From a virus: a DNA stretch of 64,000 nucleotides. The position numbers were made by a program, and so were the translations under genes. The stretch lies in IMG/VR virus record IMGVR_UViG_3300045988_097776; one strand, written 5' to 3'. Under the pieces are notes generated by a model. It did not search any database and was not told the DNA's origin. It saw nothing but the letters and a program-made list of their open reading frames with translations. This document shows positions 3,693-43,577 of the stretch, in pieces; position 1 is the stretch's first letter, and every line of letters begins with the position of its first letter.

Positions 3693-3699
3693 GGAATAT

Positions 3700-14715: not shown

Positions 14716-14759
14716 CATTCCCCTTAAATTTTATAATAAGCCATTTTCCATTCTATCCC

Positions 14760-15197
14760 TTAATGGTATAATTGATATTTTCTGCCAATCTTATCAATCT
14801 CCTCAGCTTCCATTGGCCTAAATCCAATACAAGTGAGAGTCCCTTCAGGACTCTCTTTTTCCAGCTCTGTCCTGCAAGCATCGTAAATCAAAAAGTAATC
14901 TTTATACTCCTCCATACCGAGCTCTTTAGCTGCTTCGACCGCCCGCAATAAATCATTCTTATTTTTCGCTCGACAAACAACTTTAGTTTCTGCTTCTATT
15001 ATCCAATTATGGTATAAATCTGTATCGAGACTTACATTCACATGATACATAATACCATCTCTTTCCCTAACTACTTCTTTGCTTCCCCAAAGTATTTTCT
15101 CTAAAAGAAAAGCAATAGAAGCATGGGAAACTTGTGCGGCCAGCTTACCTGGAGACATATTTAAATCTTTTCTAGCTATAATTAACTGTTTATACAT
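14760..15197 (-). CDS. peptidyl-tRNA hydrolase, PTH2 family
   Basis: IIARKDLNMSPGKLAAQVSHASIAF matches the PTH2 R-x-D-L-x-M-x-x-G-K-x-A-A-Q-x-x-H-A core. The C-terminal half aligns with the human PTRH2 fold (…KVV..A.....L......A...G…). Confidence 0.8.
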   Translation of the reverse strand: MYKQLIIARKDLNMSPGKLAAQVSHASIAFLLEKILWGSKEVVRERDGIMYHVNVSLDTDLYHNWIIEAETKVVCRAKNKNDLLRAVEAAKELGMEEYKDYFLIYDACRTELEKESPEGTLTCIGFRPMEAEEIDKIGRKYQLYH

Positions 15198-15946: not shown

Positions 15947-16145
15947 CGCGGCCTCCTTTTATAAAAATGCCGTTGGGCAAAATTAAATAATTGTCTTATT
16001 TTATTTTTCAAATAAAGTGTGTTGAGTTTTTAATTCCTCGATCTTCTACTTTAACTCTTTGTTTTCTTTTATTACTTTTGCATATTCGCATGAATCATCG
16101 CATCTAATTGGATCATACTATTGATGCAATCTAAGATAACAATAA

Positions 16146-16505
16146 TCAATGCATGGGTTCATATTTACACCCCTTTATTCTACAATCTAGTAAACACTGT
16201 CCTGTAGCTCCATCACAGGGAATTGCATCAGGGTAATCCTCAAAATAAGACGAAGCTAATAGGACTTCATACCCGAGTTCTCGCAATATTCTTTCTGCGA
16301 TATATCTATTCCTCAGCTTTACCCATTCTTCTCTATTTATTTTTGTTTCTCTGTATATTTCTCTGGATTTCTCCATATCTACTGTTATGCTGCCATCAAT
16401 ATTAGTCTTAAATGTTGAATCCTGTGTACGATAAAATTCTCGAAAAGGATTTTCAATATGAAGAACCTCTCTAGCATAATTATCAAAATCTTCTGAGAAT
16501 TTCAT
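16146..16505 (-). CDS. hypothetical protein, about 119 aa
   Basis: ORF track; the likely start ATG at 16503-16505 overlaps the FolD stop (TAATG). Confidence 0.4.
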   Translation of the reverse strand: MKFSEDFDNYAREVLHIENPFREFYRTQDSTFKTNIDGSITVDMEKSREIYRETKINREEWVKLRNRYIAERILRELGYEVLLASSYFEDYPDAIPCDGATGQCLLDCRIKGCKYEPMH

Positions 16506-17296
16506 TATCTTCGCGCCTGTTTCGCTAACTATAAGCAATTTTTCATCAACCCCAATCTAGTCAATAATCCCACCCCTCCGGGCACAGGAGTTGACCACAC
16601 TTCATTTCTCTTTGCAATATTTTCAAGTTCAACAAAATCGCCTTGAATAAAATTCGCCTAATTTCTACGAATACCAACATCAACAACAATAGCGTGAGGG
16701 CAAGCCTCTCTTGTCAAAGTAAAATCTCCAACTGCGGATACTACTAAATCTGCTATTCTTGCTAAATAAAGCTTCGCATTTACATTTGTTTTACTGTGAC
16801 AGATAGATACAGTCATATTTCTCGCCAACAACTCTTTCGCCATTGGCTTACCAACTATATTACTTCTACCTAATATTAAAGCACTTTTACCTTCATACTT
16901 AAAACCACAGTCATCAAGATAGTCTACTATTCCTCTTACCGTTGCCGGTAAAACAAGAGTAGAAGAAGTTAAACCGTCGCAGTCTTTTATCGTAGGAATT
17001 ACATCAATAGAAAAAGAACTCAATGAATCTCTTAGTGGCATTTGTGCTATAATACAATCAGTATCTATACTATTTATGTAATTATTTAAATCTGCGGGAG
17101 TCCAGTGTTCTGGAACTTTAATCACGCTTACTGGCCATCCTAATTCATTAAAGTCGTCTACTTTTTTCTATATATAAATCTAATTTCCGGCATCCCCGTT
17201 AGTTGCATCAATTATGGTCAATGATGGCTTGACATCGGACTGCCGCAATTCATCTTTCTATTGTTTAAAATATTCTTTTATGTTAATCTATTGCAT
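16505..17296 (-). CDS. folD: bifunctional methylenetetrahydrofolate dehydrogenase/cyclohydrolase FolD, 263 aa, 3 in-frame TAG
   Basis: The listed 155-aa ORF ends at a TAG. Reading through gives ...GRSNIVGKPMAKELL...VVDVGI...PVPGGVGLLT, the FolD C-domain. Upstream through two more TAGs gives the N-domain MQQINIKEYFKQQKDELRQSDVKPSLTIIDATNGDAGNQIYIQKK. Confidence 0.8.
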
Positions 17297-17621
17297 CTGG
17301 TTCTAGCCCCCATGGATCATCAGTATCATAATCAATCATATCATAGAATGATATTTTGTTATTAGGCGTTATTTCTAAAACCTAATGTGGGATACAACAT
17401 ATTTCATAATCAGAATCTCTATCTAAATTATATGAAGCATAAATATGCAAAGCCGTTGGTCTTGCATTATTGATATTTTGAACATCCCATAAGTCAACAG
17501 TGTTTTTATGTCCAAGTATGTCTGTTAGAACTTCTGGCTATACTGCTATGCTTATAATTAAAATGTTAAAGTAATACTATGCTCGTTTTGGTAATTCAGA
17601 ATAGGGCGTATCGAAAAACAT
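17283..17621 (-). CDS. hypothetical protein, 112 aa, 3 in-frame TAG; first gene of the leftward early transcript
   Basis: GGAGG RBS 10 nt before the ATG (cat at 17619-17621 on plus). Reading through TAG gives one ORF ending at TAA 17283-17285 and overlapping the folD start. Confidence 0.45.
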
Positions 17622-17736
17622 GATGGCGAAGCCTCCTATCTTATTTCTATAATTATATTATATCATTTTTAAATAAATTGGTCAAATTTTATTATTTATT
17701 TGTAAAGTTTTGTCAAATATAATAGGAGATGATAGA

Positions 17737-18450
17737 ATGAAGAAAACACATTGTATTTATATGCATAAAAACAAGATTAATGGGAAAATTTATGTTGGTC
17801 AAACATTTTAGGATAATCCTAATGCTAGATGGCAAAACGGGCATGGATATATAAAACAGCCAAAGTTTTTTTCAGATATTATAAAATACGGATGGATAAA
17901 TTTTGAACATATTATTTTAGAAGAAAACTTAACGCAATAGGAGGCGAATGAAAGAGAAAATTTTTGGATTCAATATTTTGATAGTTGTAAAAATGGGTAT
18001 AATACAATTTCAAAGAATAATAGATCAGAGGTATAGAAAAAAACAACAAATAGCCTTATTGTATGCTTAAATACAAATAAATCATATAAAACATTAAAAG
18101 AAGCGTCTTTGGATACCGGAGTTGATCCATCTGCAATTTCAAGATGTTATGGAGGATAGCGTAAAAGTGCAGGAATAATAAATGGTGTTCCTGGGTTTTG
18201 GATTTTAACAACATCGGATAAAAGCCTTATTAATAAAATAAAAAATAATTATAATGATGCTATAAGAAAGATAGTTTGTGTTGAGACTTCTAGAATTTTT
18301 AATTCTTTAGATGAGGTAATAGAATATTGTGGATTGCCAGTATCTTCTTCAAATAGAGCAAGATTAAAAAGTATTTTAAAATATAAGACAAATTCTTCTT
18401 TTGGGCGAGATAAAGAGTTAAATATAAAATTACATTGGAGTTATCTATAA
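17737..18450 (+). mobile_element. GIY-YIG homing endonuclease with two NUMOD-like HTH modules, 237 aa, 4 in-frame TAG
   Basis: N-terminus MKKTHCIYMHKNKINGKIYVGQTF[Q]DNPNARWQNGHGY (GIY...YIG...R...H...E). C-terminal repeats ...LKEASLDTGVDPSAISRCYGG[Q]RKSAGIINGVPGFWI... AGGAG RBS. Confidence 0.7.
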
Positions 18451-18521
18451 TTTGTAATAAGATTTGACAATCTAGTTTTTTTTTGTTATTATATGAGTAT
18501 AAAAAGGAGATGAACCAGTAT

Positions 18522-19568
18522 ATGATAAAATTAGACTATACGATTGAATCTCCCGAAGAGCGCAAGGCGCTTGTCGAAAAAATAATCGCAGAAAATCCTG
18601 ATTTAACTCCAGGTTATTTAGAAGTATTAGCAGATTATTTAGTTCTATGTATGGAGAAACAAGAGAAGAAAGAGAAGAACATATTGACTGATAACCGAAT
18701 GGCCACTGTCAATAAACGAGAATGTTCTTTTGAGGGACTCGCTTCATAGATGGAAAATGGCGAGGATGGCATTTATGGTTTAATGTCAGACAATAAAAAT
18801 GTTATATTTTAGCCAAAGATTTCTATTACACAAAAAGATTTAGATTCTATACCATGTTTAAAATAGTTGAGAGAAACCATTAATGCTTGGGAAGGTGCCT
18901 TGAAACGCGCCGCGGGAACGAAACAAGCTTATATGATGAAAAAAGCATTGATAGAAATGCGAAAAGATTAGTATATTATTAAATAGGCATATCAAAAGCC
19001 TATAGTTCCTTGTAAGCTAACAAGAAATACAAGAACACATATACCTCTTGATGATGAAAGTTATCTTAATGGATAGGAAGTAGTCGTTAAAGGTATTTCC
19101 TTAATGGATCCAAATGTAGTTTCTGCTATTTTATGCAATTATTCAAAATTAAAAGAAGATAGTTATGATTAGTTCGATGGGGATACGTGGTATCTAATTC
19201 AAGCGTTTGAAGAGATATGCGATAAAGCTCTTGAGGATTTTCCAATCTATTTACGAATTGTTGAGTTAAAGATTGATAAAAAGCAGAATAATGAGATATA
19301 GGAAATATTAAATGAAGAGTTCGGAAAAACATATAGCGTGGAATATATCTCCAGTTTATGGAGAAATAAAATTCCTAAATTGATAGCCGAAGCCGCCCTA
19401 GAGGATTTTTTATATTGGTAGTATAAAAACAGAAATTATCCAATGAAAAAATGTTCTAAGTGTGGGCAATTAAAGCCAGCTCATAATCAATTCTTTTCAA
19501 AAAATAAGACAAGTAAAGATAATTTATATAGTATTTGTAAGAAGTGTCGTAACAAGAAAAGAGGTTGA
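18522..19568 (+). CDS. putative late-gene transcription regulator (sigma-region-4-like HTH plus C-terminal zinc ribbon), about 348 aa, many TAG
   Basis: ...NEI[Q]EILNEEFGKTYSVEYISSLWRNKIPKLIAEAA resembles a sigma-70 region 4 HTH. C-terminus CSKCG...CKKCRNKKRG. The family assignment is tentative. Confidence 0.3.
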
Positions 19569-22496: not shown

Positions 22497-22853
22497 ATGA
22501 AAGCTAGTCGTGGAGAAATTAAAATTCATGAAATACTAGAGCAAAATGGCATAAACTTTAAAGAAGAGTATGAATTTCCTGGGTTAAAAGCGCCAAGCGG
22601 TAGACCACTTCGTTTTGATTTTGCTGTTTTTGATGATGATGGAAATCTTGATTTTTTAATTGAATATCAAGGAAAATAGCACTATTAGGCTGTAAGTAAA
22701 TTTGGTGGAAATAGAGGGTTATATCAATAGAAATATAATGATAATCAAAAGCGTAGATTTTGTGCCTTAAAAGGAATTACGCTTATAGAAGTTCCCTATA
22801 CCGAGGAAAATATCATCTCTTATGATTACTTAATGAGCAAGGCTGGATACTGA
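22497..22853 (+). mobile_element. small PD-(D/E)XK / Vsr-like endonuclease (free-standing homing-endonuclease-like gene between terminase and portal), about 118 aa
   Basis: Product MKASRGEIKIHEILEQNGINFKEEYEF...LRFDFAVFDDDGNLDFLIEYQGK[Q]HY...; family assignment tentative. The intergenic insertion site is typical of homing-endonuclease genes. Confidence 0.35.
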
Positions 22854-24513: not shown

Positions 24514-25767
24514 TTGCATATTAGTGTTCCTATTTTAAACACAATGGAATATATTTAGAACACTTAGATTTCTCCTCTAGTTAGCAAAGGCGTTTGTAAA
24601 GTTTGTTATGTCGGGCAACAGCCAAACCGCAATCATACAGTGATTACTAAGGAAGTAGCTGTAGAGATGGGGCGTAAATTGCCGGGAAGTCCTATTGTTG
24701 GCTATTTTAATCAAGAGACAAAGGATTTTGAAGGTCACAATAGAGCGATTGATATTAAAGACGGCAAGTTTGCTATTGTTGATGTAACAAGACCTTATGG
24801 ATTTGTTCCAGATAACGCTAATGTATGGTTTTAGAAGTTCAATGATGAAGGTGTAGAAAGAGAATATCTAGTTACTGATGTATATATTTGGACTGGTGTT
24901 TATCCAGAATCTAAGAGAATTTTAGAAAATGGAAACAACCATTCTATGGAATTAAATGAAAAAAATCAGTCAGGATTTTGGACAAAAGATGAAAAAACAA
25001 ATGAAAGAATCTTTATCTACAATGAAGCATTGATTGAGAAATTATGTGTTCTCGGAGAAAATGTTGAGCCTTGTTTCGAGGGAGCTCAATTTAGTTCTCA
25101 ATTTTCTTTAGAGGGTAATCAAGAGTTTTAGAAACTTAAAACTATGGTATACTCTATGATGGATCAATTAAAAGAAACTTTTAATAAAGGAGGCTCTCAA
25201 GAACCTATGGATAATGAGAATAAAGCACTTACCGAATTCGAGAAAAATAATCCTAATCCAGAGGATAAAAACAAGGAGAAAGAAAATTCTTCTGGAACTC
25301 CTGCCCCTGAGAAAGAGGGAAAAGAGGATAAGGATAAGAAAGGCAAGTATAATCTCGAAGATGTAACTGAATATACAGAGTTGCTTGCTAAATTTAATGA
25401 ATTAGAGAGTAAATATTCTGCTCTTGAGCAAGAGAAGAATACTCTAGATACCGAAGTTGCTGAATTGAAAGAGTTTAAGCTCAAAGCTGAACGTCAAAAT
25501 AAGCAACAAATGATTGATAGTTTCTATATGCTTAGCGATGATGATAAGAAAGACGTCGTGGAGCATATTGACACTTATTCTTTAGATGATATTGAAGCTA
25601 AGTTATCTATTCTTTGTGTTAGAAATAAGGTAAACTTTAACCTTGAGGATAAACATGAAGAGGATGATAAGACCCCAAAAGGACTTTTCAATTTGGAGCA
25701 TCCAGAGACAGATAATGTTCCTGATTGGGTAAAAGCAATTCGTGAGACTGCTAAGAGCAGTATTTAA
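24514..25767 (+). CDS. prohead protease/scaffold fusion candidate (N-terminal globular domain plus C-terminal coiled-coil scaffold), about 417 aa
   Basis: The listed ORFs 24640 and 25144 are in one frame joined by TAGs. The C-terminal half is a Glu/Lys-rich coiled coil (EFKLKAERQNKQQM...), typical of scaffolds. The gene lies just upstream of the capsid genes. Confidence 0.45.
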
Positions 25768-25780: not shown

Positions 25781-26470
25781 ATGGCTAAGAGTTCTAAAAG
25801 ATTAGGTAATGCTACTTTTGTCCAATATGGATATGGTCAAGTAGAACCAAACCATCTTTCCGCTCCAAGAAATGGTCAGGTATATGCCCAGCTTCCTGCT
25901 GCTAGCACAATCACCCTTCTTGAGAATGGTCAATTCGTAAAGTATGACTATGCTAAGGGTGTATGTGATTTTAGCACAGAGGCTACTTCTGGTGCTTGGA
26001 TGATGGTATTCAATGAGGTAAAAATTTATAGAGATCGTGAGACTGATGCCGATTTTGCTATGATTAAAGATAACTATAACGCTCGTGTTTATAGCCCAAT
26101 CGGACAGACCGTTTCTACACTCGCTACCATTAATGACTATACTGGTGAAGCTGTACGTGAAGGTAGTAACGTAGCATATAAAAAGAATATGGAAACATTT
26201 ACTTATCCAGCTTTGATGCCAGAAGGAACTAAAATGGTTCCACGTGTAATTAAGATTAGTATTGGTGATATTTGGACAACTAATACTATTAAGGCTGATG
26301 CCGGTTCACTTGCTGTTGGAGATCGTTTAAAGATTGGTACTGATGGTTATTTAACCGAGGATACTGAATCTTCTGCTAAGGGTGGAGATTTAGATCCTAT
26401 CTTTACAGTAGTAAAAGTATACACCATGCCCGATCTTCAACCCGGTGTAAAAGTACAGCGTGTAGGTTAA
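25781..26470 (+). CDS. capsid-associated protein (decoration or minor capsid protein), 229 aa, no TAG
   Basis: Lies between the scaffold and the major capsid gene. Ends with TAA and contains no TAG. Confidence 0.35.
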   Translation: MAKSSKRLGNATFVQYGYGQVEPNHLSAPRNGQVYAQLPAASTITLLENGQFVKYDYAKGVCDFSTEATSGAWMMVFNEVKIYRDRETDADFAMIKDNYNARVYSPIGQTVSTLATINDYTGEAVREGSNVAYKKNMETFTYPALMPEGTKMVPRVIKISIGDIWTTNTIKADAGSLAVGDRLKIGTDGYLTEDTESSAKGGDLDPIFTVVKVYTMPDLQPGVKVQRVG

Positions 26471-26489: not shown

Positions 26490-27542
26490 ATGTTAGATAA
26501 AGCTAATTTACTTAGTTTAATGAAGACTGTCGCCAATGCAAATCCTTCTGGTACCTATAGCTATCAAGGAGAATCCTTTAGCTACGACGCTTTGAACACC
26601 ACTTTGCGCAATGAGTTAAATGAGCTTGTTGGCACAGATGAACTTTATAGAGAAAATAAACATACTCTATTCTCTTTAATTGAGCAAACTATGGATGAAG
26701 TTGTTCCTAATCGTTTACTCAATTCTTATGGCAATTTTGCCGAGATTAGAACTTTCGGACAGGGAGATAAACCTGTATTTACTCGTAGAACTGGACTTAC
26801 CCGTGCTAAGCAATTCATCACTCGTGTGGGACTTGCTGGCGTATACGAGACCTTTAAGCTCGGTTCTGAGAGCTTCGAAGTTGGTACAAGTGCTATCGGC
26901 GGAGCTGCTCGTATCGGATTCGAGGAGTTCCTCGACGGAAGAGTAAACTTCGCAGAACTTACTCAGATTGTAACTGAGGGTATGCAAGAGCTTATTTATA
27001 GAGAGATTGCTCAAGCTCTTATGGGTTCTATTAATCAGCTTCCCGCGGCAAACCGTTGTGCCGTTGCTGGTTTTGATGAAGCTACTATGGATTATCTTGT
27101 AAATACTGCTAGTGCTTATGGTCAGCCCACTATTTACTGTACTCGTGAGTTTGCAGTAAAGATGATTCCAGACAACGAGGCTTGGATTTCTGATAACATG
27201 AGAGATCAGTATTGGGGAACTGGATACCTTGCTAACTACAAGGGAACTAGAGTGGTAATTCTACCTCAAACCCTTGAGGATGAGACTAACTCTAGAAAGA
27301 TGATTGACCCTGGTTATGCTTGGGTTATCCCCGGTGGAGCAGATACTCGTCCTGTTAAAGTTGCTTTTGAGGGTACTACTCACGTGCGCGAGCGCGATGA
27401 TAACGACGACTGGTCTCGTGATATTCAGGTTTACCGCAAGGTCGGAGTTGGCGTAATGATGGCAAATAACATTTTCTCTTACGTTGATACTGAACTTCAA
27501 GGTGAGCTTGATAATACTAACCCAAATCCAAATAATGGTTAA
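26490..27542 (+). CDS. major capsid protein, 350 aa, no TAG
   Basis: Size, position after the scaffold, a strong terminator directly downstream, and complete absence of TAG codons (highly expressed). Confidence 0.55.
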   Translation: MLDKANLLSLMKTVANANPSGTYSYQGESFSYDALNTTLRNELNELVGTDELYRENKHTLFSLIEQTMDEVVPNRLLNSYGNFAEIRTFGQGDKPVFTRRTGLTRAKQFITRVGLAGVYETFKLGSESFEVGTSAIGGAARIGFEEFLDGRVNFAELTQIVTEGMQELIYREIAQALMGSINQLPAANRCAVAGFDEATMDYLVNTASAYGQPTIYCTREFAVKMIPDNEAWISDNMRDQYWGTGYLANYKGTRVVILPQTLEDETNSRKMIDPGYAWVIPGGADTRPVKVAFEGTTHVRERDDNDDWSRDIQVYRKVGVGVMMANNIFSYVDTELQGELDNTNPNPNNG

Positions 27543-27544: not shown

Positions 27545-27580
27545 AAAAGGGGATAGGGAAATATCCCTATCCCCTTTATT
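27545..27580 (+). terminator. rho-independent terminator after the capsid gene
   Basis: AGGGGATAGGGA-AAT-ATCCCTATCCCCT followed by a T-run. Confidence 0.7.
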
Positions 27581-27603: not shown

Positions 27604-28140
27604 ATGAAAGATAAGTGTATTGTTTATAATAAAAGTGCGGGCCGCGCGGTATATAAACTGCCTGAGCTTGGTGTACGTCGTATGTTCTATCCAGGTGAGC
27701 ATAAAGAGATTAGTGTATCTGAGCTTGAAAAGTTGGTTCAAACACCCGGAGGCCGCAAGCTGATTTATAATTATCTATTAATTGATGATAAAGAAATTAT
27801 TGAATATCTTATTAATGGGAAAGTTGAACCAGAATATTGGTTAAAAGAGAAAGATATTGATTCGTGGATGCAGTCATGCTCTTTGGATGAATTCAAGGAT
27901 GCTCTTGATTTTGCCCCTGATGGGACAAAAGATTTGATTAAGGCTCACGCGGTTTCTCTTCCTTTGAATGATATTTCAAAGCGAGATGCGATAGAAAAAC
28001 AATTAGGTTTTAACGTTACTAAAGCGTTGGAATTAACCGCGGACGAAGGAAAAAATTCTAAAAATGAGGTTAAGCCTGTTAGAAGAGCATCGGTTGCAAG
28101 TGATGATACTCCAAAGCGTAGAGTAACTATATCCGAGTAA
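27604..28140 (+). CDS. hypothetical structural protein, about 178 aa
   Basis: AAAAGGAG RBS plus ATG at 27604; no TAG codons. Confidence 0.4.
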   Translation: MKDKCIVYNKSAGRAVYKLPELGVRRMFYPGEHKEISVSELEKLVQTPGGRKLIYNYLLIDDKEIIEYLINGKVEPEYWLKEKDIDSWMQSCSLDEFKDALDFAPDGTKDLIKAHAVSLPLNDISKRDAIEKQLGFNVTKALELTADEGKNSKNEVKPVRRASVASDDTPKRRVTISE

Positions 28141-31284: not shown

Positions 31285-32679
31285 ATGCGTTTTGGTATTC
31301 GTGAGATTTGCGATGTAGTGCTTCGTGCGAAGAGTTATCAAACCCTTGGTAATCGTAAGTTCTACAAAAATGAACCAGTTTTATATTTCGACACTTTAAG
31401 AACCTCTACTCTTGAGGGTGCTGCAACAACAGTATATGCGCAGGGCGGACGTGGATATTCTAGATTGATTGCTTGGGAAGGTGAGCGTACTCTAACCTTT
31501 ACAATGGAAGATGCTCTACTCTCTCCAGAAAGCTTCTCTATTCTTTCTGGTGCTGGCCTACTTGATGCAACAAAAGAAGCTCCTATCTATGTTCACCAGA
31601 CTTCTCAGATTGAAGTTGAGACTGCCAATACTATTATTGTTCCAGACAAGGCTTGCTGGAATGGATTTACTGACCATGATAATGAAATGTATCATCGTTC
31701 TGCCGACATCTTTGTGATGGTTTTAGGTGATGATGGTCAGGTTAATGCCGAGCCTTGTATTCCTGTTTCTGTAAGTTACACAGAAGATGGCAAAACAACT
31801 TTAACTTGTTATTCTCATGCGGGTGTACTTCCTGCGGGAACCATTGTTTTAGTTGACTACTATGTAAAACGTACCGGTGGAGCACAAATGATTGAAATTA
31901 CTGCTGATAAGTTTGGTGGTAACTATTATCTTGAGGCTTCAACTCTATTCCGTCGTGAGAGCGATGGCGTGGATATGCCTGCTGAATTTATCATTCCTAA
32001 CTGTAAAGTTCAGAGTAACTTCACATTCAGCATGGCAGCTAACGGAGATCCTTCTACCTTCACCTTTACAATGGATGCTTTCCCTGATTACACCAAGTTC
32101 GACCAAACCCATAAGGTATTGGCTGCAATTCAAGTAATTACTGATGAAAGCGGCGAGACCGAGGAAACTCGTGAGCCATGTTCTGAGAATGTAGGCACTT
32201 ATGAGAGCGAAGCTGCTGATGTGACTGTAAGTTTCGTATCTAATAGTGCTACAGCCGCAGAGCTTGATGTTACCGGTAATGTAACAGGAAAAGCTTATGA
32301 TACTGAGGCCTATGGCGATACTATCGCAGAAGCTGCTCAGATCAGCCTACAAATTCCAGTAGAGAGCGATAGCACCCAATATAATGTGGTAACTACAAAC
32401 CCAGCTTATGAGAAATACTTCTCTACAGACCCAAGAATTGAAGGTAATACAAAGACTCAAACCGTTAGTGGCGAAGAGTTGGCTCAAGGATTGCTTGTAA
32501 TTCTTACCAGCGAAGATCAGGCAACTCCTATTACCGCAAAGATTAATAAGATTAATGGTGATTTTGAAAAGAGTTATACCATTAACAACAAACTTAGCTT
32601 TGCTACATCTACCGCAGCAAAAGCTAAGACTAGCATTCGCAATAAGTTAGTCTCTGTCACCGAGGATGACGGAATTTAA
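31285..32679 (+). CDS. major tail protein (tube, or possibly sheath), 464 aa, no TAG
   Basis: GGAGG RBS. Large TAG-free gene followed by a strong terminator, located upstream of the chaperone and tape measure. Confidence 0.5.
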   Translation: MRFGIREICDVVLRAKSYQTLGNRKFYKNEPVLYFDTLRTSTLEGAATTVYAQGGRGYSRLIAWEGERTLTFTMEDALLSPESFSILSGAGLLDATKEAPIYVHQTSQIEVETANTIIVPDKACWNGFTDHDNEMYHRSADIFVMVLGDDGQVNAEPCIPVSVSYTEDGKTTLTCYSHAGVLPAGTIVLVDYYVKRTGGAQMIEITADKFGGNYYLEASTLFRRESDGVDMPAEFIIPNCKVQSNFTFSMAANGDPSTFTFTMDAFPDYTKFDQTHKVLAAIQVITDESGETEETREPCSENVGTYESEAADVTVSFVSNSATAAELDVTGNVTGKAYDTEAYGDTIAEAAQISLQIPVESDSTQYNVVTTNPAYEKYFSTDPRIEGNTKTQTVSGEELAQGLLVILTSEDQATPITAKINKINGDFEKSYTINNKLSFATSTAAKAKTSIRNKLVSVTEDDGI

Positions 32680-32685
32680 TCTAAA

Positions 32686-32722
32686 GGGAGGACTTAATGT
32701 CCTCCCTTTTTCTTTTTATAAG
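32686..32722 (+). terminator. rho-independent terminator
   Basis: AGGGAGGAC-TTAAT-GTCCTCCCT followed by TTTTCTTTTT. Confidence 0.7.
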
Positions 32723-32736
32723 GAGTAATTGGAGTT

Positions 32737-34173
32737 ATGGATATTGATATTTATGATTATGTTTAGCGTTGGTCTATTAACTATATTGTATATCACAGTA
32801 GCCATTTGAGAGAATATGGCGACGTAGAATCAGCGAATACCTTATTCAGCGCATAGTATCAATAGGCAGTAAATAAAGCATAGACCGCGGGAATTGAGGC
32901 TTAGATCTCCTCAATTCAAGAATAGATGCAGCTAAAAGCGCCTTCCGCAGCCAGTGGATTAAAGATTCTAAGTGATCTAGAGATAGGAACCCTATTAGAC
33001 TCTACTCTTGATTAGATTGCCGCCGGTATTAATGAGGGTATTGAATTAGCTGGTGGATAGGTAGATTTTGAAAACTATAATACTATATTGCAATAGGTTG
33101 GAAGCTTTAATAACTTGTTATCAACTGGTACACCGGAAATATAGAGAGTGAATGATTTCTTTAGGTTACTTATATCAGCTTTAACGAAAGCGAATATGAT
33201 AAATGTTAATGTTCTTGATGCTTTAACATAGATTGGAAGATAGCTAATAGGAACTAGCTTTTAGATAGATTAGGCATAGCAAAGTTATGTTATGGCTGTT
33301 GGCAAAGGAGATATAAATATCGCAAAAGATGTAATAGATTCTTTAAACAGGGCTGTTACTCGTTTAAGTGAATAGGGATCAGTAAACTCTCGTTCTTTTG
33401 CTAATACTATTGCTTATATATTTAGAAGGGTTATTGGAAATTAGATTAGTTAGGCGATAGTTGCAGAGGGTATATCAATAGGAGTTAATACCGCGGATAG
33501 TATATTAGATAAGGTAATCGCGCAATCTGGTGGAAAATTGCGATGGGTTGATAAAGGATAGAATAATGTCTCTAAGTCTAAAGGTACTACAAATATATTT
33601 AATAATGATACCTTTAGTTTGCAAGTAACCAAGGGCAATCAGACTTTTAATATAGAGATAGGGACAAATGTAAATGCAAGATGGCAAAATAAGAAAATGT
33701 CTTAGAATAAAATTTCTGCTTCTTCAAGTATGAATGTTGGAGAATATTTTTCTGGTTAGCCAGAGAAGTATCTTGCTTATAATATGATTGCTCATAGATA
33801 TACTGGAGCTGATTTTGAAGAATCGTTTAATAATATACGGGCTTCTGTTGCAGCGTCCTTCTTTAATTAGTGGATTCAGTCTAGTGAGTTTAGTTCATAG
33901 AAGGGTCATTTAGGATAGTTTATTATAGTTAATGGTAGAGTATTTTCAATCTAGCGAATTATTAATAATATCTGTGATGATATTGTTAGAAATAGTGCTC
34001 ATGAAGTGGTTTCTATTGGTGGAGAAGGCGCTCTGGGTAATAAGTGGTATGGCAATTCTGGAGCAAACATATTAGATGCAATCACCCGTAGTAATATAGT
34101 CAATGGAGTTATAAATAAATTAACTATTGCAGCAACTTTAAATAATAATATACTATCTAAATACGCATATTAA
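32737..34173 (+). CDS. structural protein of unknown function, 478 aa, with about 30 in-frame TAG codons (over 6 percent of codons)
   Basis: GGAG RBS plus ATG at 32737. One frame stays open to TAA 34171 when TAG is read as a sense codon. The product is globular-looking (…IGTNVNARW[Q]NKKMS[Q]NKISASSSMNVGEYFSG[Q]PEKYLAYNMIAHRYTGADFEESF…). Its neighbours have zero TAG. Confidence 0.5.
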
Positions 34174-34236
34174 ACTTGACAATAGTTAATTTTTCTAGTA
34201 TAATAAAAATATAAATGAGATAAAGGAGATTTTACA

Positions 34237-34767
34237 ATGACTTTTAAAGATTTGGGGCTTGAGCCTAAAGTTAAATATACAGAAGTAAAGGTTGGAGCAG
34301 ATAAGATTTTGTCTGTGGCTAATTATCTTCCTATTGCTGATAAAACAAATCTTATTATGTTTGTCACTGATTTATCAATAGATGAGGCAACTGGCTGTTT
34401 TAGTCCAGTTAGAGTGGAGACCTATTTTGCTATTGCTATATGCAGATGGTATGGCGGAATTACTTTTGAGCCAGAAGATGTGCATGAAAATATCGCAAAA
34501 ACCTATGACACTCTTGAGACAAACGGTGTAATTGATGCAATTCGTGATATTATTCCGGTGGAGGAACTATCTTTTATTGAGGATTTAGTTAAGGATACTA
34601 TAAGCGATATTTCAAGATATAATAGTTCTGCGGCCGGCATTATTCAGATGATGAATAAAAATGCTTCTGGTCTTGATACATATATTACTGATATGCTAGA
34701 AAAGATTAAGAATGGTGAAAATCTTGAAACACTATCAGTAATTAAAGATGTGGTTGGAAAAGATTAA
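34237..34767 (+). CDS. tail assembly chaperone candidate, 176 aa, no TAG
   Basis: Acidic protein immediately upstream of the tape measure. Confidence 0.45.
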   Translation: MTFKDLGLEPKVKYTEVKVGADKILSVANYLPIADKTNLIMFVTDLSIDEATGCFSPVRVETYFAIAICRWYGGITFEPEDVHENIAKTYDTLETNGVIDAIRDIIPVEELSFIEDLVKDTISDISRYNSSAAGIIQMMNKNASGLDTYITDMLEKIKNGENLETLSVIKDVVGKD

Positions 34768-34802: not shown

Positions 34803-34838
34803 TAAAAGGCTCTTGAGAAGATATAATTCTCAAGAGCC
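34803..34838 (+). terminator. rho-independent terminator
   Basis: AGGCTCTTGAGA-AGATATAAT-TCTCAAGAGCCT followed by a T-rich stretch. Confidence 0.6.
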
Positions 34839-34877
34839 TTATTTGTTTTATCGTAGAGATAAAGGAGGAAAAGGACT

Positions 34878-37800
34878 GTGGCTAATAAAAGATTAAACTA
34901 TTAGATTGGGTTTACCGCTGACGCGAGTCAGCTAAAAACCTCTGTTAATGAAGTTATAAATAGTTTATAGAAATTAGGCAATTAGCCATCTATTTCTAGT
35001 GAACTTCAGTAGGCATCTTTGGCGGCCCTTGAATTGAGCCGTAATCTTTAGATGGCTACTAATGGAAATTCAGGTAAGTTAGATTTGACTGCTTTTAATG
35101 ATAGTTTAGTAAAAAGCGGAAAGACTTTAACAGACTATTATAATCAACTAAGCAAACTGGGAATTTAGGGGCAAGAAACATTCTTAAATCTTTCTCAGGC
35201 TATTATGGCGGCGGAAACTCCGTTAATCAGAACTAATAAGTTAATGTCTGATTTGTGGATTACAATGAAAAATACGGTTCGTTGGTAGATTACAGCAAGC
35301 ACTTTATAGGGTTTTATTGGCTCTTTAGAGACAGCTTATGGTTATGCAAAAGATTTAAATGAATCTCTGACAAACATTCGTATAGTTACTGAAAATTCTG
35401 CCGAGGATATGGCTGTTTTTGCTAAGTAGGCTAACGAAGCAGCTAAGGCATTGAGTACAACTACAGTAGATTATACTGACGCAGCTCTGATTTACTATCA
35501 GTAGGGCCTTACTGAGTAGGAAGTTTTAGATAGAACTGAAACTACTATAAAAATGGCAAACGCCGCGGGTGTTAGCGCTTAGACTGCATCTGACTAGTTA
35601 ACTGCGGTATGGAATAACTTCTATGATGGAAGTAAAAGTCTTGAGTATTATGCAGACGTCATGGTGCGCTTAGGTGCAGATACTGCATCAAGCTCTGATG
35701 AAATTTCAGAAGGTATCTAGCAGTTTGCCGCAGTTGCAGAGACGGTAGGTTTGAGTTATGAGTATGCCGCGTCTGCGCTTGCTACTGTTACTGCTACAAC
35801 TCGTGAATCTGCGAATACTGTAGGTACTGCATTTAGAACATTATTTGCACGTATTCAGGGCTTAAATCTTGGAGAAACACTTGATGATGGAACTACTCTA
35901 AATAAATATTCTTAGGCTCTTGATAAAGTTGGAATTAACATCTTTGACGTTAATGGAGAAATCAAGACTATGGATACTTTATTAGATGAAATGGGAGAGA
36001 AATGGGAAACTCTATCTAATGATCAATAGATTGCATTAGCACAGACTGTAGCTGGAGTACGTCAATATACTCGTCTTATTGCTCTTATGGATAACTGGGA
36101 TTTCTTCTAGGAAAATTTGGAGAGTTCTTATGGAGCAGAAGGATCTCTACAAGAACAAGCAGATATTTATGCTGAATCTTGGGAGGCGGCAAGAGATAGA
36201 GTAAGAGCATCCGCGGAAGATATTTATGATAGTTTAATAAATCCTGATTTTTATATTGGGGTAGATGATGTTCTTAGTCCTATTTTAAGTACAACTGCTG
36301 ATATTATTGATGGTTTAGGCGGAATGTCTGGCGTTTTAGCAACAACTGCTTTACTGATGAATAAGGCTTTTGGTGATAAGATTGCGCAAGGAATGAGAGA
36401 TATTGCTTCTAATCTTGGTATTATCGGATAGAGAGAAAAGGATAGAGCGCAAACTTTGAGAACTGAAGCCGCATAGATGGCTGATATTATCGCGAAATCC
36501 GCACTTGATAATACTATTTAGGGATAGATGGTAAATACTCAAGCTTAGATTGTTTAGCTTGAAGGAGAAGCGTCCGCTGCGGCCACACAACTATCTGAGC
36601 GCTAGGCTGGTATTTTACAACAAGATTTAGATAGAGTAAAGGTTTTATAGACATAGGTTAATTTAATTGGGTAGTAGGTTAGCAAATCAGATGAACTTAT
36701 TACAGCTTATACAAATAGTTTGTCTGAGCGTTTAGTTCCCAATAAAAAATGGAAGGATAATCTACTATCGGCGCTTGTGTTAGAAGATGAAAATAAATTT
36801 TCTTTTTATGAGGACATAGAAACAGAAATTCTCTATAGTTCAAAGACAAATTAGCAAGCCCTTTAGAGTTTAATTGACAAATTAAAAGTGGCGAGCGTAA
36901 GTCTTTCTAAGTTTTAGCAAGTATAGAAATTAGTTGGTTCTGGAACCAATGAAATCTCTCAAGAAACTATTAATTTAGTAAGAAGCCTAAATCTTTTTGA
37001 AGGTGCTCAAGATGCAACAAATTAGGAGATAATAGAATATCTTACTACCTCTTAGTAGTTTTAGGAAGCATTAAAGGGGGCAGAATCAGACGTTGCTGCA
37101 TTAAATAGAGTTATTACTTCTTTAGGTGATGGTTCTGTTAAATTTAAAAATGATCTAAGTGGTCTTGTAGCAGCTTTTAAGAATAATGAAATTAGTGTTG
37201 AGGCTTTTAGATAGGGATTAGAATTATTACAGTAGAAAACAAAAGAAATTAGTGAGGGGTTAAAGAATAACAGATATGCTACTTTAGACTGGGCTGAGAC
37301 ATTGGTTAAAGTAGGAACCACTTTATCGCAAGTTACAATGGGAATGACAAGTATTAATTCCATGTTCTCTACTTTTACAAATTCTGTGAAAGAGGGAGAG
37401 TTTACTGTTGAAGATTTTACAGTTATTCTTACTAACTTTGGAATGTTATTACCAACAATCTCTACCTTGTTTAAAAAGCAGGCATTACAAAATAGTTTAA
37501 CTGCAATATCGTATTTAACAGTTGGAGCTTCAGCTAAAACTGCGGCTGCTGGTATTACTACTGTTGGTGCGGCTATCTCAACTGCTTTACCACTTATTGG
37601 GTTAATCACTTTGGGAGTAACCTTACTTGTTAATGTTATTTCTCTCATTATTGTTACGGAAGAAGAGGCTAGAGAAAAAATATCTAGTGCTACCTAGGCT
37701 TATGAGGATTAGAAATCTGCATTAGAATCTTTAAATTCTGAATTATAGACAACGAAAGATAGAATAGAAGAATTAAATAATTAGGATTCTTTAAGTATAG

Positions 37801-40800
37801 TCGAACAAGAAGAATTAGAAAAACTTAAATAGGCAGAATCTTCTTTGTAGAGATAGGTTGAGTTACAAGAGAAGTTAACAGAAGAAGCGCAAAAAGCCTA
37901 GGCAAAAACTATCGAAGAGAATTATGATAAATCTACTAAGAGTTTGGCAGGAGGACCAGATTTAACCTAGTGGAGAAGTTGGAATGAATACAATGGAGAC
38001 TAGGACTGGTTTAAAGAGTTAGAATAGAGCATGGATTTAAATGATCCAAATGCTCAATTTGTACTTGAATAGAATAGATATACTTATAAAGATTAGTACG
38101 TAGATGCAGACACTTGGTTTAATAGTATTACTTAGGGCCTTGATAAAAATTCTGATGCCTATCGTGATTACTTAGTAGAGTATCAAGATTGGGTTACTCA
38201 AAATGAATAGATTACGGCACAGTGGGTAACTGACAATTCTGAAGCTATATAGCAAGCAGAAGATGATTATGCTGCATATATTAAATCTGTTACTGACGGG
38301 GTTATTGAGTATAATCCAGAAATGATAGCTTCAATGCAGGAGCAGTTATCTCTTATTCGTAAAAATCTTTATGGCAGTCAAAGTGAATATGAAGAGGTTA
38401 TATTAAAACCAATTTTAGATAACCAATCAGTTAAATAGATTTCTACTTAGCTTTATAGCACTTTGGCTAGTAGTGATATTAGTGCAGCCTCTGGTTTGAT
38501 AACAGAATCCATTAAAAATGAATTAATGTTAGCTGGAGTCAGCGTAGATGAGTTTTTAACTTTTGTAGATAGCAGAGTAGATGAAGCAAAGGAAAAAGTA
38601 GAAAGTAAATTTAGTGATTTTGATTTTGATTCTCTATCAAATGAGGATTGGGAAATCCTTATGGATGTCAATATAGATAATTTTGATGCGGTTGAAGAAT
38701 TATAGGAATTTTTAGATAATTATAAAATTAATGAAATAAATATAAATGTAAAGGGAATAGACGACTTAAAATCTATATTGGAAGAATTAAATAATAGTTA
38801 GAGTGCTCTTGAATCTGCCTTATAGTCATATAAGGATCAAGAAGGCTATCTAACCATGGATCAAGTTCAAGAACTCATTAATGCAGATGAAAGATATGCT
38901 TAGTATATTGTTAAAGTTGGAGATGCGTATAAACTAACAAATTAGTCTCTTTAGACATTTTTAGATTCTGAACGACAAGAAGAGCAAATTCTTGATGCTA
39001 CAATAGAATCTATGAAAGAAAAATATGGGGTAAATACTGATTATCTCTAGAATTATATTAATATGTGGGATGAATTAGTATCGCGAGCCAGTGATTCAAA
39101 TGCAATAAATGATTATACGTTTACAAGTGAAACTGATGTAGAATTGTTTAAAGAGAGAACATAGGCCCTTAGTGATAATGCGAAAGCGTATCAGGAGGGG
39201 GCAATATCTGCCCAAGAATATTTTGATACGATTAATAAAAGATTAAGTAATATAAATGCAGGCTTTCATAGATTAAACGAAGAAATTGACGATAATATAG
39301 AAGAAACTGATTTATATGAAGCTACTTTGGTCGCTGCAACCGGGTCTATAGGGGATGGACTGATAGATTTAAATAAAAAGTTTAAATCTGGAACCATCAA
39401 TATGGATGATTACTATGAGGGAACAATCGCTGCCACGAAAGCATTAATTACGGCTTAGTCTAAATTAAATTAGAATATTACAAAAAATACAGACGGAGTT
39501 TGGGAACTCAGAGATGGAGTAGATCAAACTACAATTTCTGAGGAAGAATATGCCAGAACCATGTCTGATATATCTAATTTAAATACTTGGGAAAAACAAG
39601 TGAGCGATGCCCAAGACATGATGGGAATTGTAAATAGTTTAGTAGATAATTACGATTACTTATTAAACTATGCTGATAGCTTTGGAGCGATAGATTTTAC
39701 CATTGATAATAATTTCGATACTACTGCGACAGAATTTTAGGCAATGGTATCAAGTATTGGACAATAGCTCGTAGGACTAGAATAGACTAATAACGAATCT
39801 TATAAAAGGATTCTCTAGGGTGTTCTTGATTAGGGAATAACGCTAGCAAATGGACTAGATACAAGCGCCGATGCTTTAATGCAAGCAATGTCCACTGATG
39901 CTAGTATCGCTGGAGCCGTTATTAATTCTACTATGTCCGAGAGTGCTAATACAATTAGCTCAACTTCATAGGCGGCTGGGGCTGTTCTAACAGCACTAGG
40001 AGATTTAATTTCTAATTTTGAATATGATTTAGGTTTTACTCCATATGTAAAATCATGGGGAAAATTATAGATAGATGATTGGCTAGCTGGCAAAGCGGAT
40101 CTTCCTTTTGAGCTTCCCACTCTAGGATTAAAAATTTCCGGCGAGGGCGGAGATGCTATTGGTAATTTTACTAATGCTCTAAAAGAAGCTGGTTCATATT
40201 TATCTTCTTAGGGTACGGGATCTGGATAGAATGGTATTTTTGATTATGGTTAGGAGCCATTTGCATTTGATCCTGATGGAGCATTAGATCCGAATAGAAT
40301 AGCAACAGACAATATTAGAAATAAAGATTCTGGCGGAGATAACGAAGGTACAAAATATGATGCCGAAGATGAAAAAACTCTTGAAGATATAGAAGATAGA
40401 TACCATGAAATAACTCGTGAGATTGAGAATTAGAATAATTTATTAGATGATATTGGTAATAATATAGATAGAGCATATGGAGCGAAGAAATTATAGGCTT
40501 ATTAGAAAGAGCTTCAAGAGTTAGAAAAACAGCAAGCTAATTATAATAAGATGCTTGATGAGGCTGAGACCTATCTTGAGAAAGATAGATCAGACCTTCA
40601 AGGATTATTCAACAATTCTCTTACTTTTGATGAAAATGGAGAAATTGAAGGTTATCAAGACGTTCTTCAATCTATTGTTGATGATTATAATAATAACTTC
40701 TTAACCGATTACAACGCTTTCTTATTAATGTTTAGCAGTCTTACTAAAGATGAATAGGAGGCTAGATAGGCAGAATATGATAGTTGGCAATTACAAAAAG

Positions 40801-43577
40801 AAGTTGCTGATGAATTATTCTAGGCTCGTTAGGACGCTTTAGCTCAATATGAAGAAACTCTTGACAAGATTCAAGATGTAAAAGATGAGCAAGAAGAGCT
40901 AGAAAGAAATATTGCAGATAATAGATTAAATTAGATTGAATATAAACTTGAAGTTGCGATAGATATAAAAGATGCTAAAGATGCGGTTAATGAGCTAACA
41001 AGACAAATAGCAGAATCTTTTGGTGATGAGCTAACTCATGGAATGGAAGTCGCTCGTATTGATAAAAACAGTATGAACGAGAACATTGAAATCATCAAGA
41101 GCTATGAAGAAGCCCTTAAAAGTTATCAGGAAGAATTAGCTAATGCCACAGATGCGACTAATATTGATGAGATTGTAAGTAAGTTATCTGACTTACAAGG
41201 TAAAATGATTTCTACCGCAGAGGCTTTGCTTGATTGGGTAGAAGGTCTTGAAGAAATGCTACCAGATGCATTAGATGCCGCGTCAGAAAGATTTGCAGCT
41301 TTTACTGATTAGCTTGACCATAATGAATCCGTTCTAGGACTTATCAAAGAACTATATGCTCTTTAGGGAGTTACATATAAGACTGAGGAAGGATTTGAGT
41401 AGCTTCAGGAAGTAAGCGAAGAAACTATGAAGGCTCAGGTCGCCAATGCGCAGCTAAATAAACAATGGTACGATGGAATCCGTCAAGAACTATTGGAAGC
41501 TCAAGCTGCACTAGACGCATTAGGCGGAGATGAAACGGATCCTGCATATGATGGTTTAAAAGCTAATAGAGATGCTCTACTAGAAGAATTTAATGAAGCA
41601 CAAGAGGCTATGTTAAGTTCCGCGCAAGCTGCTATGGAGACTGCTTAGGAGATGTATACTCAAGCTATTGAAAGAGCAGTATATGAATTTGGATAGGCTG
41701 TTTCTGGTGGAGTAGGATTAGATCTACTACAAGACAAATTCGATCATTATATCGAACAAGAGGATAGATATTTAGATAAAGTAAATGAAGCGTATGAGGT
41801 ATCTTCTTGGTATAATAAACTACAACAGGATATTGATAAGGCTACTAACTCTAAGATGAAAGATTAGTTAAAATAGCTACAAGAGGAAATTGATATACGT
41901 AGAGAGAACAATACCTTATCTGAATACGATTTAGAAATTCTCGAAGCTAAGTATAATGTTCTTTAGGCTTAGATGGCACTTGAAGATGCTCAAAATGCGA
42001 AAAATCAACTTAGACTAGTGAGAGATAGTCAAGGTAACTGGAATTATCAATACACCGCAGATGCGAGCCAGATAGCTGACGCAGAATAGAATTTGCTTGA
42101 TGCGGAGAATGAGTGGTATAATATAGCAAAGCAGTAGGTAGAGGATGTTACAGGAGAGATTATTTCTACTTGGCAAGAATGTCAAGATAAGATAAAAGAA
42201 ATCTATTCTGATATGACCTTGACTGATGAAGAAAGATCTGCCCGCGCGCAAGAAATCTATTCTTATTATACGCAGAAGGTTAAGGACCTAGAGAACGAAA
42301 AATAGATCGCTATTAAGGATATGACCGAAGCCGGCAATAAAGCTTTAATTGATATGGCTATTGTTGCGGGAGACGAGGTAAGTGACCTAACTGGAATTAC
42401 AAGTCAAGAAATTCAAGATATTATAGCTAACTCTGGCTCTAGCATTATTGATTTGTTACTATCAGATAACGAGTAGATTCAAGATATAGTAGGAAGTAAT
42501 ACAAAACTTATTGACCTATTTGATAACGTATTTGCGAAAGACTTAGCGAATATGACCGCTAATGCCGGCAACTTTGAAGAGTTTTTATCTAATGCAATGG
42601 ATGAAGCTAGCGGAGCGATGGAGGATTATCAAACTACTGTTTCTGGAGTAGCCGATTAGACTGGAACAAGTCTCGATGATTTAAAAGATTATATCGACGA
42701 TGTTTCAACTTCTACTGATTTGTGCTCTGAGGCTGGATCAAATGCCGTTACTTAGATGTTAGAATAGATAAGCACTATTCAAGATTTAAGTCAAGAGTAT
42801 TTAGATATGGCCGATTCAGTCAGAGAATATATAAGAGCGCTTGAAGAAGCCGCTAGAGCTGCTGGTAGCACAATAGAAAGTGCAGGAAGTATAGATAAAG
42901 ATGACTTACCTTCTTCTGATTCAAGTCAATCTTCTGATACTGATAAAGGTAACTCAGGTAATAGTGGTAGTGGATCTTCCAGTAGTGGAACTGGAGGAGG
43001 TAATGGAATCCCCGAAGTAGGAGATGAAGTTATTTATACTGGTGGAACTTACTATCATGATTCTTATGGCACTGATCCTGCTGGTAGACGCGGTCCAGGT
43101 AAAAAGGTTAGAATAACAAACATAGCTAAGGGTAGACCTTATCCAATCCATGTACAGTCCAATAATTCCGCTTATGGATGGCTAAAAGAAAGTTAGATAA
43201 GTGGCTTCGATACTGGAGGATATACTGGAGAATTTGATAATGCTAAATTAGCTTTCTTACATGAAAAAGAGTTAGTTTTAAATCAAGAGGATACGAAAAA
43301 TATCTTGGCGGCGGTCTCTGCTATGAGAGCCTTTGGACCTAGTTTTATAGCCTCTATTGAGAAAACTCTTGACGGGAACGCACTATCTATTTCTAGTATT
43401 ATGGCATCTAGATTGGGAACTAATACCTAGATTGCGCCGACAGATAATGTGGTTTAGCCAAATATAAATATTGAACGAGTTGAATTCCCCAATGCGACAT
43501 CTTCTGATGAAATTCAAGATGCTATTCGTAGTTTGGCGGATGATGCTACTCAATGGGCGAATAGAAGAAAAGAATAA
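34878..43577 (+). CDS. tail tape measure protein, about 2899 aa, many tens of in-frame TAG
   Basis: All listed ORF fragments in this span (36117, 37302, 38463, 40551, 41043, 41427, 42807) are in frame 0 and join across TAGs. It carries TMP motifs (…SEGI[Q]QFAAVAETVGLSYEYAASALATVTATTRESANTVGTAFRTLFARIQGL…, …[Q]TVAGVR[Q]YTRLIALMDNWD…) and the canonical C-terminus …SGFDTGGYTGEFDNAKLAFLHEKELVLN[Q]EDT…. Confidence 0.85.

Follow-up and report, generated by a model that had tools for sequence, protein, structure and literature searches.

The reassigned codon TAG is absent from the major capsid and tail tube genes of a glutamine-recoded siphovirus and common in most of its other late genes

Reassignment of TAG from stop to glutamine (genetic code 15) has been described for crAss-like, Lak, Garnet, Topaz and other phage clades (Ivanova, 2014; Yutin, 2021, PMC7886860; Borges, 2021/22, bioRxiv 10.1101/2021.08.26.457843; Peters, 2022, PMC9523058), and in gut phages other than the one studied here the decoding of TAG as Gln has been demonstrated by proteomics (Peters et al., 2022, PMC9523058). 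The usual view of recoding in gut phages is that of an early/late switch. Here we analyze a window of 64,000 nucleotides (the whole stretch of DNA, IMG/VR virus record IMGVR_UViG_3300045988_097776) and, within it, a gene of the tail module at positions 32737-34173 on the plus strand, located between the tail tube and the tail chaperone genes and called the target gene in the following. An earlier note, made from the letters of the window alone, had singled out this gene for its many in-frame TAG codons. The window belongs to a large siphovirus of the SPbeta-like or Phass-1-like group in which TAG is decoded as Gln. The target gene is no statistical outlier among the late genes of this phage, and the non-random feature of the locus is the absence of TAG from four other genes, which are the decoration gene, the major capsid gene, the gene at 27604-28140 and the tube gene.

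Among the described systems, the general statement of Borges et al. that recoded stops may be enriched or depleted by selection in a given gene family, with emphasis on an enrichment in lysis genes, comes close to what is considered here. In crAss-like phages the capsid gene often carries TAG, and stops in the genes for TerL, MCP and portal were used by Yutin et al. as evidence of recoding (PMC7886860). Under table 11, the capsid gene was found by Cook et al. in only 57% of the genomes with code 15, and 52% of the code-15 phages encode a suppressor tRNA with a CUA anticodon (PMC11210395). Phass-1 (OQ749652), a phage of about 136 kb from the human gut for which a Phassvirus group has been proposed, has TAG-recoded TerL, portal and tape measure genes and, according to the paper, three suppressor tRNA-CTA genes; the accessible text of this paper contains no analysis of TAG usage per gene (Babkin et al., 2023, PMC10607447). 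When the tRNA array of Phass-1 was inspected, one suppressor tRNA-CTA was found annotated, about 65 kb away from the head genes. In this array (L133 in our collection of loci, record positions 96637-114300), tRNA-Gln(CUG), tRNA-Gln(UUG) and Sup-CUA stand together and are interleaved with NAD-salvage genes, so that the phage supplies decoders for all three Gln-type codons.

The phage of the window resembles the code-15 gut phages in that TAG is concentrated in late structural genes and aligned with Gln, TAA is the preferred stop, the GC content is low (36.6%) and close relatives use the standard code. Unlike those clades, it is a large siphovirus with head and tail genes of the SPbeta type. Its capsid protein is 51% identical to that of Phass-1, and in both phages the protease (in the window its C-terminal part), decoration, capsid and tube genes are TAG-free and rich in CAG. 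However, no match at the nucleotide level was found between them, so they belong to different species and genera, and the Phass-1 gene following the tube gene (429 aa, TAG-free, CAG-rich) is unrelated in sequence to the target, the Phass-1 tail module being rearranged. Recoding and the fact that it is concentrated in late genes have already been published, as has this phage group, and a single gene with many TAGs is ordinary in this setting. In the accessible text of the literature considered, no description was found of virion genes of highest copy number that avoid TAG in connection with terminators and with an optimal-codon regime already in place, and the pattern is a modest refinement and not a new kind of system.

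Reading TAG as sense increased the number of bases in open reading frames (ORFs) of at least 100 aa from 33.8 kb under the standard code to 81.8 kb and revealed one co-directional late module, extending from about 17.7 kb to 56.8 kb, in which a terminase-position gene and the portal, tape measure and tail genes were restored. The true stops of its 27 late genes are TAA in 21 cases and TGA in six, and TAG is never used as terminator. Also, translation and codon counts of the target showed a frame of 478 codons ending in TAA, in which TAG is the sole interruption and neither TGA nor an internal TAA occurs; the chance of such a frame without TAA and TGA is about 5e-12 at the base composition of the window. 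A Shine-Dalgarno-like AAGGAG, read directly from the sequence, is located on the plus strand at 32720-32725, 11 nt upstream of the ATG at 32737. No alternative ORF of more than 62 aa was found between 32737 and 34173 in any other frame or on the other strand, and therefore a frameshift-corrected reading, named in the earlier note as a possible refutation, cannot remove the TAGs of the target. That note was right in stating that the phage reads TAG as sense and that the target is open only in this case, which holds over all 478 codons. The figures given for the target had to be lowered, from about 30 TAGs to 25, from more than 6% of codons to 5.2%, and from nearly all Gln-like positions to 71% (25 TAG, 7 CAA and 3 CAG among 35 Gln-type codons).

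Several comparisons showed that Gln is the residue encoded by TAG. The identical TAG-to-Gln translation of the target is already present in the protein database, together with 41 further full-length homologues. In a relative with standard code throughout the module (L088/L089), the orthologue of the target is 43% identical, has a length of 469 aa and no internal TAG, and ends in TAG as stop. In the recoded relative L004, whose target orthologue is 79% identical, 14 of the 25 TAGs are conserved in a codon-level alignment, and over all aligned genes the TAGs of the window correspond to TAG in 85, to CAA or CAG in 76 and to Glu or Lys codons in 32 cases. When the window was compared with the standard-code L088, CAA and CAG were the commonest counterparts of TAG (23/76), followed by Lys (12) and Glu (10), with a Gln background of 6%. 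Position 394 of the target, a TAG in the window, is Gln in all 25 aligned homologues and thus invariant in 26 sequences, and the tape measure motifs 'YQIG' and 'ELQQAS' similarly match Gln at TAG. The target is thus a genuine, conserved gene in which TAG is read as Gln.

In order to place the target among its neighbors, TAG, CAA and CAG were counted in each of the 27 late genes, which in total contain 301 TAG, 218 CAA and 71 CAG. The ratio of TAG to CAA plus CAG was heterogeneous (chi-square p=1.5e-6), and this heterogeneity is due to TAG-free genes. In binomial tests the outliers were the major capsid gene at 26490-27542 (0/13 Gln codons are TAG, p=9e-5), the tube gene at 31285-32679 (0/15, p=2e-5) and the decoration candidate at 25781-26470 (0/8, p=3e-3). 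Once these genes and the one at 27604-28140 (0/3) are set aside, usage in the 23 that remain is compatible with one common TAG share of 55% (chi-square test, p=0.10; permutation test, p=0.09). Pooled, the four genes have no TAG among 39 Gln codons, compared with 306 of 558 in the other late genes (Fisher p=1.7e-13). The target with its 25/35 gives p=0.06, uncorrected, and equal or higher shares occur in other genes, as in those at 53484-54074 (79%) and 54089-55999 (74%). Since the target protein is rich in Gln (7.3% vs 4.9%), its high density of TAG per codon is largely a consequence of its composition.

The gene-by-gene polarization described in the earlier note is therefore real, but it consists of depletion in the neighbors and not of enrichment in the target, whose share lies within the spread of the 22 other non-abundant late genes. 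A uniform model of codon usage gives a divided answer, as it holds for the target among the ordinary late genes but fails for the capsid and tube genes. The absence of TAG that had been stated for the genes at 25781-26470, 26490-27542, 31285-32679 and 34237-34767 and for the part at 25144-25767 was confirmed, and the gene at 27604-28140 is to be added. For the chaperone-like gene at 34237-34767 the count was correct and carries no meaning, as the gene has a single Gln codon (p=0.49). That the most abundant virion proteins lack TAG was supported, and so was the TAG-richness of the tape measure (103 TAG in 2899 codons) and of the distal tail genes.

The comparison was extended to relatives, which were collected as 80 loci via the tube protein and seven via the target and were grouped into 48 non-identical recoded and 27 standard-code loci; orthologues were mapped in each locus, and the gene between tube and chaperone, referred to as the slot gene, was extracted. 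The IMG/VR contig IMGVR_UViG_3300045988_152426 (163.6 kb) shows 95-100% identity across the module. In the recoded loci, which span 40-99% identity, TAG makes up 0.02 of the Gln codons in the major capsid gene, 0.004 in the tube gene, 0.01 in the decoration gene, 0.03 in the orthologues of 27604 and 0.10 in the chaperone gene, compared with 0.31-0.47 in other head-tail genes, 0.44 in the tape measure gene and 0.58 in the slot gene. Similarly, the Phass-1 protease, decoration, capsid and tube genes contain no TAG, and CAG accounts for 15 of 15 Gln codons in its capsid gene and for 12 of 14 in its tube gene.

The TAG-free genes of the window also differ from the other late genes in almost all of the remaining codon families. 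ATA is used for 2 of 69 Ile codons in the TAG-free genes and for 275 of 894 in the others, CGT is favored over AGA (p=2e-9), AAC is preferred, and the shares of TTC (50% vs 20%), AAG (51% vs 31%), GAG (54% vs 31%) and CAG (46% vs 21%) are all elevated. Significant differences were obtained in seven of nine two-fold families as well as for Arg, Leu, Ile, Gly and Thr, and the GC content of the TAG-free genes is 0.38-0.42, compared with about 0.33 elsewhere. The capsid and tube genes served as reference for a codon-adaptation index (CAI) from which Gln codons were excluded. The highest independent scores were those of the decoration-position gene (0.77, no TAG) and of the protease/scaffold gene (0.75), whose TAG share of 4/17 is the lowest among the TAG-containing genes; the target has the third lowest score (0.50). 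The same contrasts exist in relatives that do not read TAG as sense. In the abundant genes of the 27 standard-code loci, CAG/(CAA+CAG) reaches 0.56-0.74, compared with 0.16-0.27 in the other genes and 0.16 in the slot gene among these, and in the standard-code L088 ATA is found in 0/73 vs 142/392 Ile codons and the contrasts for AGR, AAG, TTC and CAG are reproduced. Because it is present in standard-code relatives, the two-class codon regime predates recoding, and it is family-wide.

Transcription signals offer a proxy for expression that is independent of codon usage. On the plus strand, the strongest intrinsic-terminator hairpin of the region (14 bp, 7 GC) is located at 27546-27577 directly downstream of the capsid stop, a further one of 11 bp (6 GC) with a T-tract at 32683-32709 directly downstream of the tube stop, and a strong hairpin of 14 bp at 34806-34840 after the chaperone gene. 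They are the three strongest terminator-like hairpins between 17000 and 36500. When 33 relatives were examined for a hairpin with a T-tract and an energy of -14 kcal/mol or below, one was present behind the capsid gene in 94% of them, behind the tube gene in 73%, behind the chaperone gene in 94% and behind other genes in 0%. Between the target stop and the chaperone start, at 34176-34204 on the plus strand, lies a perfect promoter of the sigma-70/sigma-A type (TTGACA-17-TATAAT), the only 12/12 match between 17000 and 36500, and a match of at least 10/12 precedes the chaperone gene in 31 of 33 relatives, compared with 35 of 660 control windows. The promoter also lies in the same spacer, just before the chaperone gene, in L004, L017, L039, L048, L052, L053, L070, L084, L085, L087 and others. 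The phage itself encodes a sigma-factor-like protein (18510-19568, phrog_5767), and the chaperone unit is nonetheless of the sigma-A type. As only 27 nt separate the tube terminator from the ATG of the target, there is no room for a promoter, and the target would be transcribed by read-through alone, in a conserved transcriptional trough. The TAG-free genes appear to be the most highly expressed class, judging by how many copies of capsid, decoration and tube proteins virions are known to contain and by the terminators behind these genes.

In bacteria and phages, translational selection is known to act on a few very highly expressed genes, which use preferred codons and avoid rare ones such as ATA and AGA, and the rest of the genes follow mutational bias. 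We consider it probable that expression-linked selection against a suppressor-decoded codon explains the TAG pattern. TAG would then rank as a non-optimal one among synonymous codons. Where late genes are weakly expressed, the three Gln codons would stay near mutational equilibrium, with TAG at about 55%, and Gln-rich low-copy genes such as the target and the tape measure would accumulate many TAGs, whereas TAG would be purged from genes of very high copy number (decoration, capsid, 27604, tube and, family-wide, the chaperone), in the same way as ATA and AGA, by selection for translation that is efficient and accurate. The presumed cost would be a slow reading of TAG, an abortion by release factor 1, or both, and it would scale with expression. 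It differs from ordinary rare-codon avoidance in that the avoided codon is a reassigned stop, whose misreading leads to termination and not to substitution, so that the penalty should be larger. When the TAG-free genes are compared with L004, 22-49% of the identical residues use another codon, and none of these codons became TAG. As CAG is the only Gln codon one transition away from TAG, the CAG-rich abundant genes have the greatest mutational opportunity and yet stay TAG-free. A lower synonymous divergence was also considered as a sign of codon selection and rejected, as only the capsid gene is low (0.22), compared with 0.38 for the tube gene and 0.49 for 27604.

Some observations weigh against this explanation. 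A suppressor tRNA was found neither in the 64-kb window (ARAGORN, Rfam) nor in about 10 kb adjacent to it on near-identical contigs, nor in the other related loci scanned, and an exact search with the anticodon arm of the Phass-1 Sup-CTA matched only two unrelated contigs; absence from the window is uninformative, because about 100 kb of the genome lie outside it and the Phass-1 suppressor is located about 65 kb from its head genes. A graded correlation between CAI and TAG share was not obtained for the 20 non-reference genes with at least five Gln codons (Spearman -0.24, p=0.32), and the pattern is thus one of two classes and not continuous. If release factor 1 competed for TAG, fewer T residues would be expected at position +4, and a weak depletion was indeed observed in the window (p=0.02 vs AAG+GAG+CAG) but was absent in 20 relatives. 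That virions contain many copies of the capsid, tube and decoration proteins is taken from general knowledge about phages. The slot gene has the highest TAG share of the family, in counts uncorrected for shared ancestry, for which the model offers only the weakest selection. Finally, L130 has TAG at 3 of 15 Gln codons in its capsid gene and at 2 of 13 in its tube gene, so that avoidance is quantitative and not absolute.

The earlier note had proposed that the polarization is deliberate and that the suppressor tRNA gates expression. Accordingly, a TAG load would be selected in the target, tape measure and baseplate genes, and the TAG-free capsid and tube proteins would be made independently of suppression, which would set the timing or stoichiometry of assembly. 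This is unlikely. Regulation by enrichment or depletion of recoded stops per gene family has been proposed by Borges et al., lysis genes being biased to recoded stops, and if the yield of full-length protein falls multiplicatively with each TAG, the 25 and 103 TAGs of target and tape measure should confer a high sensitivity to suppression; the family-wide TAG share of the slot gene and its position in a transcriptional trough also point in this direction. However, the target and 22 other late genes cannot be told apart statistically. Nor are the abundant proteins insulated from suppression, as had been claimed, since TAG occurs in the terminase-position gene (14), the portal gene (10), the N-terminal part of the protease/scaffold gene (4) and the head-tail connector genes, so that a virion cannot be assembled from the TAG-free proteins unless TAG is decoded. 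The two gene classes differ in almost all other codon families too, also in standard-code relatives in which gating is impossible.

A narrower version concerns the slot gene only, which might be deliberately limited in dose and gated by the suppressor, with attenuation at the terminator and multiplicative attenuation at the amber codons keeping a fast-evolving factor of host interaction or anti-defence low and late. This reading builds on transcription by read-through, on the highest TAG share and on the replacement or extreme divergence of the gene between sub-lineages, and we regard it as rather improbable. If it were true, the amber load would be a tunable, heritable dial of expression within a single late operon.

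A mosaic origin, with TAG-free genes recently imported from standard-code relatives and the target and tape measure genes resident for long, is very unlikely. Standard-code and recoded lineages are interleaved in the family, and the higher GC content of the TAG-free genes would suit an import. However, TAG is scarce in the same four or five genes throughout the 48 recoded loci and in Phass-1, their identity to the nearest relatives is collinear with that of the flanking genes, and their synonymous sites are not frozen and have nowhere changed to TAG in comparison with L004, even though their Gln codons are mostly CAG, the codon with the highest mutational opportunity. That the target ORF is not one protein, being a pseudogene, mis-framed or read with another residue at TAG, can hardly be maintained, because against the lack of a suppressor tRNA in the window and of a family annotation for its product stand 478 codons free of TAA and TGA with no alternative ORF, an intact standard-code orthologue and full-length homologues in many clusters, a confident fold obtained from homologue covariation, Gln as by far the commonest substitute for TAG in homologues and the proteomic demonstration of TAG-to-Gln decoding in other gut phages (PMC9523058).

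In a profile search against 1.8 billion representatives, the family of the target protein comprised 121 clusters at 50% identity, with full-length homologues reaching down to about 15% identity. No family annotation was found for the product, and no similarity of sequence or fold to the described tail families (tube, chaperone, tape measure, tail terminator, distal tail) was detected. An AF2 model calculated with 26 sequences had a pLDDT of 58.7, and with 98 diverse family members a pLDDT of 79.8 and a pTM of 0.73 were reached. The model shows long helical bundles at residues 1-265, a poorly modelled linker at about 276-325 and an alpha/beta domain at 328-478. Distant family members keep the position, in the order tube, X, chaperone and tape measure.

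One gene of 314-532 aa, rich in Gln and with a preference for CAA, occupies the slot in every case (L015-L087). In other sub-lineages the slot genes fall into at least 16 clusters devoid of detectable similarity, while the flanking genes are 52-70% identical. Homology among the slot genes of relatives was sought by blastp clustering, by hhalign between clusters and with an HMM of 98 sequences and was not established, the sole link being to the slot protein of L015, with which 98 C-terminal columns matched at 75% probability. The 452-aa gene preceding the tape measure gene in Enterococcus phage VRE9_4 was rejected as an equivalent (hhalign probability 1.3%). The slot resembles tail-module morons or accessory slots in that very divergent genes stand between conserved tail genes. 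A classical moron has a promoter and a terminator of its own. The target was rejected as such, as both are missing, and a terminator hairpin follows the slot gene in none of the 33 relatives. The target probably encodes a low-copy protein of the tail module, the low dose being suggested by its transcriptional setting; judging from context only, our guess is a fast-evolving, tail-associated or accessory protein.

The neighboring genes, all on the plus strand, were identified by PHROG matches and by Pfam matches of orthologues in L088, L130 and L131 (YonD_N, YonB, YomW, YomU_Tube, PhageMin_Tail), and gene order agrees with Enterococcus phage VRE9_4, Lactococcus phage phiL47 and Bacillus phage Thrax3. 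The gene set shared by the SPbeta-like and Phass-1-like large siphoviruses of Firmicutes is present in its order, with YonD-type protease, decoration protein, YonB-type capsid, YomW, YomU-type tube, chaperone and a very long tape measure. The gene at 24544-25767 encodes a prohead protease/scaffold-like protein of 407 aa (phrog_3313; PF27290 YonD_N in orthologues). Its four TAGs all lie before codon 201, and a TAG-free C-terminal part begins at an in-frame ATG at 25144, which recalls the nested lambda C/Nu3 arrangement; no Shine-Dalgarno sequence was found upstream of this candidate start of a nested scaffold. It is followed by the candidate decoration or stabilizing protein of 229 aa (25781-26470; phrog_35301), whose positional counterpart in Thrax3 is annotated as 'capsid stabilizing protein', and by the major capsid protein of 350 aa (26490-27542; phrog_4088; PF27364 YonB in orthologues), whose positional counterpart in Thrax3 is annotated as 'major capsid protein'. 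The next gene after the capsid terminator is the head-module gene at 27604-28140 (178 aa). It contains no TAG in the window and almost none across the family and prefers CAG, which suggests a further, unannotated virion component of high copy number.

The major tail (tube) protein of 464 aa (31285-32679; phrog_2729; optimal codons) matches PF27173 YomU_Tube in its orthologues and has a distant homologue in Thrax3 annotated as 'major tail protein'. The chaperone-like protein of 176 aa (34237-34767; phrog_30570) has a position before the tape measure that fits a function in tail assembly, and its orthologue in L130 gives a weak match to PF27287 YomO. The tape measure gene at 34878-43577 encodes 2899 aa with 103 TAG and 100 CAA plus CAG codons (PF10145 in orthologues). 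Its true start is the GTG at 34878, preceded by the ribosome-binding site (RBS) AAGGAGG at 34863-34869, and not the ATG at 35052; the extension (34878-35051) adds 58 codons, including five further TAGs, and can be aligned with the tape measure N-terminus of the standard-code L088. A programmed frameshift between chaperone and tape measure was ruled out by the terminator and by the separate RBS and GTG start.

In the left third of the window (1-17700), short ORFs on both strands form a patchwork in which TAG-free genes lie beside TAG-containing ones. The minus-strand gene at 6593-7417 is TAG-free and has an ETAN/HTGLED motif which by eye resembles 3'-5' exonucleases, and the ORF at 16505-17329 contains 7 TAGs. 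The presence of TAG-containing genes in this region indicates that recoding reaches beyond the structural module. Two small genes flanking the packaging genes, at 17737-18450 and 22497-22853, contain 4 and 3 TAGs, respectively, so that any mobile or accessory genes located there would also be recoded; the N-terminus encoded by the former looks GIY-YIG-like by eye.

For the annotation of such phages it matters that capsid and tube genes stay whole when the standard code is applied and can hide recoding from marker-based checks. Also, Gln-rich low-copy genes are shattered by standard gene callers, and a rule that allows only ATG as start in code 15 truncates the tape measure. The locus flags a widespread, uncharacterized protein family in a conserved, hypervariable slot of the tail module, and together with about 48 recoded and 27 standard-code relatives it provides a clean natural comparison. 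Within the late module, the reassigned stop would act as a costly rare codon, purged from the virion genes of highest copy number and making up about half of the Gln codons elsewhere, and this would support a cost-based over a purely regulatory view of recoded codon usage.

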